A stretch of DNA of 64,000 nucleotides from an uncultured Actinomycetota bacterium. GTDB lineage: Bacteria; Actinomycetota; Actinomycetes; Mycobacteriales; Pseudonocardiaceae. Made by a program: the position numbers and the translations under genes. How positions within the stretch are numbered: the first letter of the stretch is position 1; each line of letters starts with the position of its first letter. This document shows, in pieces, positions 19,352 to 23,770 of this stretch. The notes under the pieces are model-generated. The model was not told where the DNA came from. It saw nothing but the letters and a program-made list of their open reading frames with translations, and made no database searches. The DNA is taken from contig CAVSGQ010000014.1 in NCBI GenBank assembly GCA_963727495.1, positions 351,051-415,050 on the forward strand, given 5' to 3'.

Positions 19352-19787
19352 GATGTCACCGACCAGCTTGGTGCCGGGTGTCTCGGCGGTGAAGTCCCGG
19401 TCCACCAGGTCCGGGATGCGGTGCTGGTCGTCCGGGTCGGTGGTGGTCGGCCGCCACGGCCGCGGCTGGCAGGCCACCAGGCCCAGCTCGCGCATCAGGT
19501 CCCGGACCAGCTCGTCGGACACCTGCTCGCCCGAGCGGACGAGCACGGCGTGGATGCGCCGGTAGCCGTAGGCGCCGTGGTTCGCCTCGAAGATCGCCGT
19601 GATCATCGCCGCCAGCCGCGCACGACGCTCGGTCGCCGGCGAGGGCGGGCGGTCACGCCACTCGTAGTAGCCCGAGGTGGACACCTCCAGCCAGGCGCAC
19701 ATCCTGCTGATCGGGAAGTTGTCCTTCTCGCCGTCGATAAACGCGAACTTCGCGCTCACCGATACTCCTGGGCGAAGAAGGCCGCCG

Positions 19788-21715
19788 GTCGAGTAGCCCA
19801 GGGGAATCTCACCCCTGGGCCCTCACAGAACCGTGCGTAACAGTCTCCCGTTACACGGCTCTTACCATCCAGTCGGCAGGAAACTCCGGGTCCACACCCA
19901 CTGGGCGAAAAGCCGCGGGTATCGCTCACACACGGCATACCACCATGCGCGAACCTTCTTGAATCCGTGGAGCCGCTTGTATTTCTTTCGAGCCCAGCGC
20001 ATCAAGTAGGTGTTGATGCGTCTGCACAAGACATAGAGCGCACTTCGATAGAATTTACCGTAGTACTGGAGCCAGCCCCGCACGATCGGGTTGATCCACC
20101 GCGCGATCTGGCCGAGTGTCCAGGTGCTGTGCCGGTGTAGTTTCCAGCTGCGGACCTCTCGGTTGATGGCTTTCATCGCGTCCTTGCTGATCGCGGGCAG
20201 GAACGAGGTGAACATCTCCCCGTGCTTGTCCCGCGCGCCTCGCGCCTGGAAGGTGTATCCGAGGAACGTGAACGACGTCTGCTCTGCTGAGCGGTTTCGT
20301 CGTCCGTCCTTGCAGTACACGACTTTCGTCTTCTCCGGGTGCAGCGTCAGCCCGACACTGTCCAGCCTTGCCCCGATCTTGTCTCGCAGCATCAGCGGCC
20401 TGCTTCTCACTGACGCAATGCACCACCGCGTCATCCACGTAGCGTTCGAACGTGACGGTCGGGAACTCCCGCGCCATCCACGCGTCGAACGCATAATGCA
20501 GAAACAGGTTTGCTAGTACCGGCGAGACCGCCGATCCCTGTGGGGTTCCACGGTCACGCGCCTGCAAGGTTCCGTCCGAGCGTTGCAGCGGTGCGGTAAG
20601 CCACCGCCGCACATACAACACCACCCAATCCGAGTCGGTGTTCGCCCGCACGGCCTTCACCATCAGTCGAATGATCAACGGTGTCGAAGAACTTCTGGAT
20701 ATCCAGATCAATCGCCCAGTCCGCCTTCCAGCACCGTCGCCGACATGTTCCACCGCGTCCAGCGCCGACTTTTTCGGGCGGTAGCCATACGAGTCGGGGT
20801 GGAACAAGGGTTCCACCCGTTTCTCCAACTCCATCGCCACCACCGTTTGCGCGACCCTGTCCGCGACGGTAGGCACGCCGAGTGTTCGGACTCCGCCACC
20901 GGCGCTTCGGTATCTCTACCGCTCTCACCGGCGGCGGGAAGTACGTCCCCGACGACATCCGATTCCACACCCGGTAAAGATTGTTCTTCAGGTCGGCCTC
21001 GAACCTCTCGATGGACACCCCATCCACTCCTGGCGCCCCTTTGTTAGCCCTGACTTTCTCCCACGCCTCATGCACCGCCCACTTCGAAATCTCAAACGAC
21101 TTTCCTGACAGCTTCGTCTGACTCACCCAGCTCCTCCCGAACAACGCCGGTTGACTACATGAACAGACCGGATAGTCCGACCCCTTCGCTCCACGGCCAT
21201 TACAGCCGCTTCATCGCTACTACAAGCCGGTCCGCCAGCACGTCCCGCATCGGTACTCAACGCCTCACAGTTTCCGCTGCCCGGCGCGCTCCCTCTCGCC
21301 ACCTCACTGGCGTCGGTATCGGGACATGCCTTCCCACGTTCCATGCGAAAGCCGCAGATCAGACTCACGTCGCCTCCATGCCGGACACCACCTGGCCAAC
21401 ACGTCGGGCACCCGCCAGGCTCATCCCGGAATGCTGAAAAGACACCCCGGTTTCGATGTCAGCTGTAAATTCAATAACGACACGTCAACAGCGATTCACT
21501 CACGTTCGTCTTCCTGATCCCCATCTGACGCCTCCTACGGCGCCTTTTCCTCGATCGCTCACCACGACGGTCTTCAGCCAACGCAGCATGAGGTGATTTG
21601 AAGCCTCTCCCCGAACAAGACGACTCCGAGAGGGCCAACAATCCTCCATCTCCCGCACAGCACCATTCCCGGCGACAATACCTACGTCACGCCGCCTCCC
21701 ATGTTCGTGGCACAC
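19788..21715 (-). mobile_element. Group II intron (self-splicing RNA with RT/maturase ORF, no endonuclease domain seen)
   Basis: 5' end GTGTG at 21715 and 3' end ...CTCGAC at 19788. Domains V/VI at 19788-19865. EBS1 (21436-21441) and EBS2 (21511-21516) are complementary to exon GAAAAG and TTCCTG. Removing the intron restores the orfA frame. Confidence 0.95.
19862..21126 (-). pseudogene. ltrA: Group II intron reverse transcriptase/maturase, frameshifted as assembled
   Basis: ANKGAPGVDG, PTVADRVAQ, SYGYRP, GTPQGSAVSPVLANLFLHY, YVDD and a maturase X domain (INPIVRGWLQYY), spread over three or more frames. Confidence 0.92.
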
Positions 21716-21791
21716 CTTTTCCCAGGAACTCGTTCCGCATCTTCAACTCGCGGTTCTCCCGCTCGAGCTCACGCAACCTGGCCCGCTCAGA

Positions 21792-23519
21792 CCCGATTCC
21801 GCGAGTAGTCGGTTGAGTTGATCTTATGGTTCGTGAGGTTGTCTGGTGGGGTGGGTTTCGTGGGCGTGGGCATGCCACAGGCCCGGGTGTGGCGCCGGGT
21901 TCGCGGGTCTCGGGGTTCCTGGGTCGGGGCTGGGGTGGCCGGGTGGTCAGGGCAGTGCGGGGAGTTTCCGGAGTCGGGCGAGGATCTCGGCGAGCAGGTG
22001 GTGACCGGGCGGTGGGTGCAGGATTGGTTGCCCTGATTGGAGAACGAGGCGGGCGGGGACGCGGATCAGCCGGTGGCGCAGGGTGGCGATCATGGCTTTG
22101 CCGTCGCGGGCGCCCCAGCCGGAGAGCTGTCCGGCTGGTCCGGGGGTGGCGGTGAGTTGGTGGAGCCAGGCGGCCATGCTGGCGGCCAGCAGCGCGCCCC
22201 ACATCCAGGCGGTGTTGACCTCGGGATAACCGGAGGGGAGGTGGCGGAGCGCGGCGCCGTGTTTGCTGTCGCGGAAGATGTTTTCGATGCTGGTGCGGTG
22301 TCGGTACCAGTGCTCAACTGGGCGGCTTTGTCCGGTGTGGACACGTCGGCCGGATCAACGAGGTTGGTGAGGATGAACGAGTAGCCGTAGATCGCGTCCG
22401 CGTCGGCCAACTCTTCGAGCGGGAGGGCGCGTTGGTCGGGGTGCAGGGTGCGGCGCCGCCGCGAGCGGGGATCGGCCGAGACCTGACAGATGTCGAGACG
22501 GACCCGGCGGATGAGCAGGAAGGTCTTGGCGGGCCACCAGACCGGCCGGTAGTCGGCGACGGCGACCTGCGCGCCGTCCATGTCGATCGCGTCGGTCCAG
22601 TCGTCCTCGGTGATGCCGTCGAGCAGCCGCCAGAGCGGGGCGATGCGTTTGGCGCCGATCGCGAACTCCACGTCGGCGAAGAACGCGACCCGGGCCAGCT
22701 CACCGGCGAAGTAGCCGGCGTCGGCCCGTAACCGCACCCGACCCGCTCTGGCCTGTTCGGGTAACGCCGCGAGCGCACGCCGGAACAGTTCGGCGGCGTG
22801 TGCGCGTGGATCATCGTTACCCGACACCAACTCGCGCGGCCAGCACGGTCTCGACCTCGGCCCAGGACGCCACGTGCGCACGTCCCACCCGCTGCCCCTC
22901 ATGGTTGAAGGCGACACCGCGTTTCTTGCGCCCGTAGACCTCCACGTCGCTGGCGTCGAGATCGATCGTCGCCGCAGCGCACAACCGTGTCCGCCGCACC
23001 GCGGGCACCCGCTCCAGCATCCGCTCGTCACCTGCGCGACCCCGGTCTCCACCGCCGTCCATTGTGGATCGGTGAACCTGCGCGCCAGCCCAGCGGCCGT
23101 GGTCGAGGACAACCCCGGCACCGGCGTGATCACCTGCCCCGCCACATCGGCACGCTGGCGGTCCAGACCCGACCAGGAAGTCCTCCCCGGCCATCTGCGC
23201 CGCGGCCAGACCCGACCAACACCTCACCAGCGCCGAACCCACGAGTCACGCTGCTTGATCGGCCCCACCGCCGCATCCAACGCCGAGATCACACCCAGCC
23301 GCTCCACCAACTCCGTGACCGCCGCCATCCCCGACACCGACGTCAACGACGGGTCCGGCGCGCCGACCCGCACCTCCGGCCGTCCACCACGTAAACTACC
23401 CACCCGATAGGTGTCCTCTCCCGGGACTGATCACGTCGTCGCAAACGTCATCATCCCAGGCCAGAGCGGCACCTATCACCATCTCAGCAGCGTGTCACCG
23501 CCTTACTCGCGGATACGGG
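21792..23519 (-). mobile_element. IS1380-family element with frameshifted transposase
   Basis: IRs CCCGATTCCGCGAGTA / TACTCGCGGATACGGG; 5-bp target duplication TCAGA; motifs IDLDASDVEVYG, LRADAGYF and FAIGAKR. Confidence 0.9.
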
Positions 23520-23770
23520 TCAGAAACCGACAGCGGCTCCTCCTCGACCGGATGCGCCTTACGATACGAAGCGACCCAATTCCCCAATGTTCCCGCGTTG
23601 ATCCCCAACTCCCGAGCGACCTGCGCGACCGGACGATTCCCCTCAATCACCATCTTGACCGCTTCGTCCCGAAACTCGGGAGAAAACTTCCTACGCCGTT
23701 CCGGCATCGATCATCCTCCATTCCAGACCGGACCTTATTAGGTCCACTGTCCGGAAAGTTGGAGGCGCGC

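Follow-up and report, generated by a model that had tools for sequence, protein, structure and literature searches.

The window analyzed here is a 64,000-nucleotide (nt) stretch of contig CAVSGQ010000014.1 (assembly GCA_963727495.1) from an uncultured actinobacterium of the Pseudonocardiaceae. On its minus strand lies a decayed group II intron of 1928 nt, inserted in the sense orientation within an insertion sequence (IS) of the IS3 family. An earlier note on this DNA had placed a group II intron at 19760-21730. The intron is real, and this interval corresponds to the intron proper, 19788-21715, plus short flanks. The 5' end is at 21715 (GTGTGCC...) and the 3' end at 19788 (...CTCGAC), so that the element starts with GTGTG and ends with GAC, as the end rules of bacterial group II introns prescribe (5' GUGYG, 3' AY). 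Domain 1 was recognized at 21643-21524 (Rfam RF01999, 69 bits, cut-off 36), in a region that could be aligned end to end with 25 relatives, and domains 5 and 6 were matched over the full length of RF00029 at 19788-19863 (61.3 bits, cut-off 40).

Between these domains, at 19865-21126 (minus strand), lies a reverse transcriptase/maturase pseudogene whose open reading frame (ORF) pieces matched RVT_1 and GIIM (maturase) in Pfam. The reading frame finishes just upstream of domain 5, and the endonuclease domain is absent. Over its full length, the intron shares 77.5% identity with an intact intron of 1923 nt from Nocardia sp. CA-128927. Alignment with the intact 421-aa protein of the latter divides the pseudogene into five frame segments, with four frame switches near 20895-20860, 20751, 20673, and 20408.

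The host element is also broken. The 5' part of its orfA lies at 23518-23741 (minus strand; Pfam HTH_Tnp_1, E = 3.8e-15) and is 83% identical to L035, the closest uninterrupted homologue with the full slippery heptamer described below. Between 23518 and 21791, where the two aligned parts overlap by about 7 nt, the match to L035 is interrupted by another IS of 1.7 kb at 21792-23517, which gave a weak DDE_Tnp_1_4 match and is itself frameshifted. The last 76 nt of the orfA piece, encoding the end of the leucine zipper, form the 5' exon of the intron at 21716-21791 (minus strand), as seen from the blastn match to L035 and from translation; this exon is the orfA end (..RELKMRNEFLGK). The 3' exon, at 19352-19787 (minus strand), covers the tail of orfA (AAAFFAQEYR; stop codon at 19758-19756) as well as 136 codons of orfB, counted from its GTG start at 19759; it is 87% identical to L035 and contains HTH_21. 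The host thus shows the IS3-family pattern of an HTH_Tnp_1 orfA and an HTH_21 orfB with a -1 overlap. However, it has no complete DDE (rve) core, since orfB breaks off at 19352, at the first catalytic Asp, and no terminal inverted repeats, since the element lacks both ends. The cut adjoins a 20-nt palindrome, followed by an inverted, unrelated IS3.

Judged from their sequences, the intron and the host IS3 at this locus are fossils, both of them dead. A second intron copy, a second host IS3, and an empty target word were all sought in the genome from which the window comes, and none was found; two other maturase-bearing loci in this genome showed no DNA-level match to the window intron. Another intron has left an isolated fragment of domains 5/6, 72 nt long and 89% identical to the end of the window intron, on a different contig (G000:C17:39034-39106, L002), with no IS3 nearby.

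The position of the 5' junction is the main point of interest. Read in the orfA frame, the 5' exon ends in CTG GGA AAA G, which contains the slippery heptamer G_GGA_AAA (21717-21723, minus strand) ending 1 nt before the intron. In the joined exons, the -1 frame runs without a stop from 53 nt upstream of the junction through the end of the surviving orfB piece, and the orfA stop lies 29 nt past the junction. A heptamer at the exon end and a -1 frame open into orfB after splicing had both been proposed in the earlier note, and direct reading of the exons bore out both.

To the extent that related elements can tell, this is where IS3 frameshifting would take place. We compared 16 uninterrupted homologues of the host IS3 from same-family genomes (69 to 88% identity over the orfB start), and the junction region was kept in all of them. 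Nine read GGA AAA G, including four from unpublished genomes (L036 in G271, L038 in G232, L041 in G062, and L042 in G129), and the others GGA AAG G, GGG AAA G, or GGA AAA T; the junction of L052 (G004) likewise comes from an unpublished genome. More distant homologues have a canonical A-run followed by G at exactly the heptamer position. In L035 the -1 overlap of orfA and orfB is only 43 nt long, and the G_GGA_AAA heptamer is its sole X_XXY_YYZ motif. The junction falls inside overlap windows of 43 to 140 nt in the window, L035, L160 (Streptomyces sp. NPDC005336), L205, and L206. Heptamers of the type V_VV.A_AA.R are a common, shift-prone class among IS3 elements (PMC4066793). The assignment of the heptamer position as the IS3 frameshift site is therefore a well-supported prediction from the comparison. 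The closest homologue of the host IS3 (L034 in G118:C16, 88%) has a slippery run one A shorter (GGG AAA G), by which the heptamer register is lost; it is probably a mutated copy.

We then asked how the intron recognizes this site, by comparing domain 1 in an alignment of 26 related introns. Exon-binding site 1 (EBS1, CUUUUC) is located at 21436-21441 (minus strand), in the 7-nt loop of a predicted 9-bp hairpin, and forms six Watson-Crick pairs with the last six bases of the 5' exon, GAAAAG, the intron-binding site 1 (IBS1). The equivalent loop is complementary to the last six bases of the relative's own exon in 10 relatives with other exons, for example L008, L009, L010, L012, L013, and L033, and, with wobble pairs, L030. 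The pairing of EBS1 with GAAAAG suggested earlier thus stands on covariation of the loop with the exon. Only the local EBS1 hairpin was taken from the minimum-energy fold of domain 1 (426 nt), which as a whole was not better than shuffles (z = -0.29).

EBS2 turned out differently. The earlier note had paired CAGGAA (21511-21516, minus strand) with TTCCTG in the exon. This segment is nearly invariant in nearly all of the 26 aligned relatives irrespective of their exons; we therefore regard it as a conserved structural segment that does not bind the exon, and its match to TTCCTG as chance. The likely true EBS2 is a variable loop at 21462-21477 (minus strand), closed by GUGUCG/UGACAU, the homologous loop of which pairs with IBS2 in relatives, covering exon positions -7 to -13 in L010 (7 bp), L013, and L008.

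The earlier note had suggested a survey of related introns for the same insertion site, and this was carried out at three scales. A similarity search of 300 same-family genomes, made without regard to the insertion site, found related introns (65 to 80% identity) in 78 of them. Among the cases found, G293 and G264 share the 5' junction of the window intron, with an orfA end ..AFLVK followed by the intron, and G191 and G293 share the 3' junction, in which the intron is followed by the Ala-rich orfA tail and the orfB start in identical register. Species representatives in public databases were then scanned for AAAAG joined to the intron 5' end. The scan returned 119 stretches, most of them chance hits outside introns, and 12 continued into the 5'-end sequence of the intron family. 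Rfam found domain 1 downstream of the junction in 11 of the 12; the exception was L129, where only 137 nt of intron precede the end of the contig. Eleven of the 12 records also lie at the end of an IS3-type orfA, with the endings ILKK, FLKK (two kinds), FLGK (two), FMGK, and IMGK (four). The same-site public records come from Streptomyces (4), Nocardia, Mycobacterium, Amycolatopsis, Saccharothrix, and Pseudonocardia or Pseudonocardiaceae, with one 2.7-kb contig of a metagenome-assembled genome (MAG) binned elsewhere. In total, at least 12 other actinobacterial genomes have a 5' junction at this place, after a Lys codon plus G. The survey thus supports a shared target, with the junction present in G293, G264, G191, and 11 public actinobacterial records, and these cases are independent of unpublished genomes.

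A tree of domains 1 to 3 placed the window intron in a clade with four others, including introns from a Mycobacterium MAG, G293, and Nocardia sp. CA-128927, with an SH-aLRT support of 95. All five introns of this clade are at the heptamer site, and the remaining same-site introns fall in three further groups of the tree. Since the public cases were picked by a pattern that requires the exon end, the tree is silent on whether the site is ancestral.

The same-site intron of G293 is split on contig C1 into a 5' third at 7799618-7800252 (L063) and the 3' two-thirds at 7820669-7821944 (L007). The parts lie 20 kb apart in an order that is wrong for a simple insertion, and each remains attached to its IS3 exon, pointing to a rearrangement that went through the intron.

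Nocardia sp. CA-128927 provides the clearest case of a site shared between different hosts. Its genome contains three 100% identical copies of the 1923-nt intron with the intact 421-aa protein. One copy is located in the same IS3 type as the window host (L205; ..EFLGK, then AAAFF..), and the other two in a quite different IS3-family element (..EILGK, then AFELL..). The -1 frame of this second host (L206) opens 26 nt ahead of the junction and encodes an rve domain. The 11-mer also occurs by chance at four places outside IS elements in this genome, and all four are empty.

The same Nocardia strain (G301) has, in seven copies (L208-L214), a second intron with 71% identity to the first. Each copy follows ..ACAACGCCGGAGC or a near variant, in unrelated and apparently non-IS contexts.

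We interpret the window intron as a dead copy of an actinobacterial, endonuclease-less intron lineage that homes to the IS3 orfA/orfB recoding window, and we assign this reading a probability of about 0.78. The intron ribonucleoprotein would locate its site mainly by base pairing, with EBS1 (CUUUUC or CUUUUU) pairing to GAAAAG or AAAAAG, the A-rich 3' portion of the slippery motif. Insertion would occur in the sense orientation one base past the heptamer, ahead of the codons for the conserved Ala-rich orfA tail. Additional specificity may come from EBS2, from the initial bases of the conserved run of Ala codons, or from the protein. The slippery run would be held constant by the IS's own requirement for OrfAB, and A-rich words are rare in the GC-rich host genomes; the motif may therefore serve as a conserved, harmless, and mobile address common to diverged IS3 elements. 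A dispensable, mobile, and multi-copy host would thus be what offers the intron its conserved address. As the intron precedes the orfA tail and the whole of orfB, this anatomy would let OrfAB and native OrfA be produced only from spliced RNA. Such splicing-dependent OrfAB synthesis would be a property of the lineage and cannot be assigned to the window copy, because its reverse transcriptase gene, IS3 orfA, and IS3 orfB are all broken.

Several observations weigh against this interpretation. In the site-blind family sample, the insertions with resolved 5' junctions (about 33) are mostly at unrelated places, and only 3 are at the heptamer site; in a site-blind sample of 400 genomes at the class level, none of about 16 resolved junctions was there. 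Most of the more distant relatives are at unrelated sites. The pattern used in the public scan demands AAAAG plus the intron start and hence gives no site frequency. As for recognition, the variable loop at 21477-21462 pairs weakly with its own exon (3 to 5 positions including wobbles), and no convincing EBS2 pairing was found in the other same-site introns by eye and regular expression; the recognized pairing thus accounts for about 6 to 7 bp of specificity, yet random 11-mers are unused. RNAalifold on the 16 homologues gave only a weak consensus structure downstream of the heptamer (-6.6 kcal/mol, one compensatory pair) and no convincing stimulatory element, so that the signal as examined consists of the heptamer by itself. 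Finally, part of the four frameshifts in the maturase gene could be assembly errors; uninterrupted long ORFs in the rest of the window speak against an assembly full of indels.

Relatives of the window intron also occupy other places in IS3 elements. L030 is inserted 8 nt downstream of the junction, L012 and L033 in the orfA helix-turn-helix, and L231 (G493:C9) in the conserved orfB motif ..CYDN. The helix-turn-helix sites rest on unpublished sequences (L012 in G004, L033 in G038), and the flanks of L005 (G123), L014 (G275), L019 (G087), L026 (G232), and L031 (G129) also come from unpublished genomes. The relative in L014 lies within a further group II intron, in whose reverse transcriptase gene it follows a ..DSYGY motif. 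L014 and L231 are further instances in which this intron family uses conserved words of mobile-element genes. In another genome, which holds two copies, a related intron directly follows a tRNA T-arm-like sequence (GGTTCGAATCCTGG; L008:1480-1500, G242:C1).

A stronger form of the proposal would have a widespread actinobacterial lineage specialized on the IS3 recoding site, with splicing gating OrfAB, the intron acting as a regulator or brake, and the heptamer selected jointly by IS and intron; we regard this form as unlikely. Another explanation is that the position itself was selected by co-adapted regulation, as splicing would gate the OrfA:OrfAB ratio and hence the transposition rate. Unspliced RNA would then give only an OrfA variant with a short foreign tail, and in the unspliced RNA of the window copy both frames indeed stop within 12 codons of entering the intron. 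The junction is also always within the overlap window, 1 nt past the motif, and the site is kept by several well-separated intron groups. However, pure conservation of the address predicts the same pattern. Moreover, the use of other conserved IS3 motifs by relatives (L012, L033, L030, and L231) points to a taste for any conserved IS3 word and away from a special role for recoding. We consider co-adapted regulation unlikely.

Very unlikely, and already disfavored, is a one-off ectopic retrotransposition into an IBS1-like site, by which the coincidence with the frameshift site would be due to chance and the same-site relatives to a search artifact. The poor pairing of EBS2 with the exon, the single and dead copy in the window, and the pattern-selected public scan are in line with such an event. 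However, the site-blind family searches also gave G293, G264, and G191, the five members of the window clade are without exception at the site, and in Nocardia identical copies occupy two IS3 types of one genome while random 11-mers are empty. The recurrence is also very unlikely to reflect, in place of repeated homing, an intron-bearing IS3 that spread as one composite element by its own transposition. An IS that moves takes any intron inside it along, and the L205 host and the window host are of the same IS3 type, but the orfA ends at the shared junction are diverse (FLGK, FLVK, FLKK, ILKK, FMGK, IMGK, and ILGK) with differing tails, and in Nocardia 100% identical copies occupy two unrelated hosts. 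Likewise, because the host IS3 sequences differ strongly, the same-site cases are unlikely to descend from a single vertically inherited IS3-plus-intron unit. Homing of an endonuclease-less lineage to the recoding site is thus the reading that we prefer.

The surroundings of the host IS3 contain further traces of mobile elements. The palindrome adjoining the orfB cut is perfect over its 20 nt (19333-19352) and joins two convergent, unrelated IS3 orfB genes, each of which is cut at the first catalytic Asp. A copy with two mismatches on contig 9 (G000:C9:465109-465128, equal to L217:1501-1520) follows repeated TCGGCATAGTC words and abuts a different transposase at its DNG motif. Palindromic repeats of a similar kind (CGGCATAAC) adjoin an IS3 in G176 (L049) right at the slippery heptamer, on its upstream side. 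The palindrome resembles the terminus of a further element that interrupts transposase genes at their conserved words. The neighboring unrelated IS3 copy (orfA 18601-18918, orfB 18915-19334) gave a match to the ALIL frameshift pseudoknot at 18876-19007 (plus strand) of 45.8 bits, slightly below the Rfam cut-off of 50, and has no obvious G_GGA_AAA-type heptamer.

The locus itself is ordinary, since it is a fossil, and the pattern at the level of the lineage is moderately interesting. It would be an example of one selfish element exploiting the recoding signal of another, and would explain how a single intron invades very different IS3 elements. It also predicts that the transposition of invaded IS3 copies depends on splicing, and the intact copies in Nocardia and Streptomyces make this directly testable. 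For annotation, it carries the warning that actinobacterial IS3 "pseudogenes" split at the frameshift site may be interrupted by an intron rather than decayed.

The predicted frameshift signal resembles those of IS911, IS3, and IS150 (A_AAA_AAG plus a downstream structure) in its position within orfA (Leu-Lys/Gly-Lys-Ala-Ala) and in the -1 overlap with orfB, and like known IS3 signals it belongs to the V_VV.A_AA.R class (PMC4066793). It differs from them in that the heptamer is G_GGA_AAA rather than an A-run, and in that RNAalifold found no convincing hairpin or pseudoknot with it.

Two IS-homing introns are the closest known parallels. E.c.I4 (IntA) of Escherichia and Shigella retrohomes to specific positions of IS629, IS911, ISEc16, and ISEc31 (PMC3522654; Han 2004 cited there). 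As here, a conserved sequence across several IS3-family elements serves as the homing site; E.c.I4 can fill all copies on offer and leaves dead remnants behind (PMC3522654). In contrast to our case, its hosts are Enterobacteria rather than actinobacteria, and no link to recoding has been described for it. The site differs as well. In our own reading of the E. coli K-12 CP4-6 locus, IS911A ends inside the orfB motif ..GDVTY.. and is followed by GTGTGCC.. and the ykfC reverse transcriptase fragment, which places the fragment in the DVTY motif of the catalytic core, around the first catalytic Asp and some 380 nt past the frameshift site. This fragment gave no Rfam match at the gathering threshold because it lacks domains 5 and 6. 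A Salmonella plasmid intron considered as a route to E.c.I4 was set aside, being a different intron with no E. coli matches.

RmInt1 of Sinorhizobium meliloti targets copies of ISRm2011-2 and ISRm10-1 and, according to its description (PMC1802570), resembles the window lineage in lacking the endonuclease domain, in EBS/IBS recognition, and in spreading through the IS copies of a genome. A tblastn search with a piece of the window protein gave matches in 82 Sinorhizobium plasmid records. In that account, the host IS of RmInt1 is of the IS630 group and the site is not described as one of programmed frameshifting (PMC1802570); furthermore, RmInt1 is active, whereas the window copy is dead. We found no account of a group II intron at an IS3 slippery site in the literature searched, which covered few subscription journals, so that a prior description is possible. 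IS-targeting introns are thus known already, and what appears to be new against the literature searched is that the homing address would be the programmed frameshift site. Recurrent occupation of one site in different IS copies and genomes is a trait of both E.c.I4 and RmInt1 that the window lineage shares, and by analogy its homing logic would be the same as that of RmInt1 in ISRm2011-2 and of E.c.I4 in IS3-family elements.

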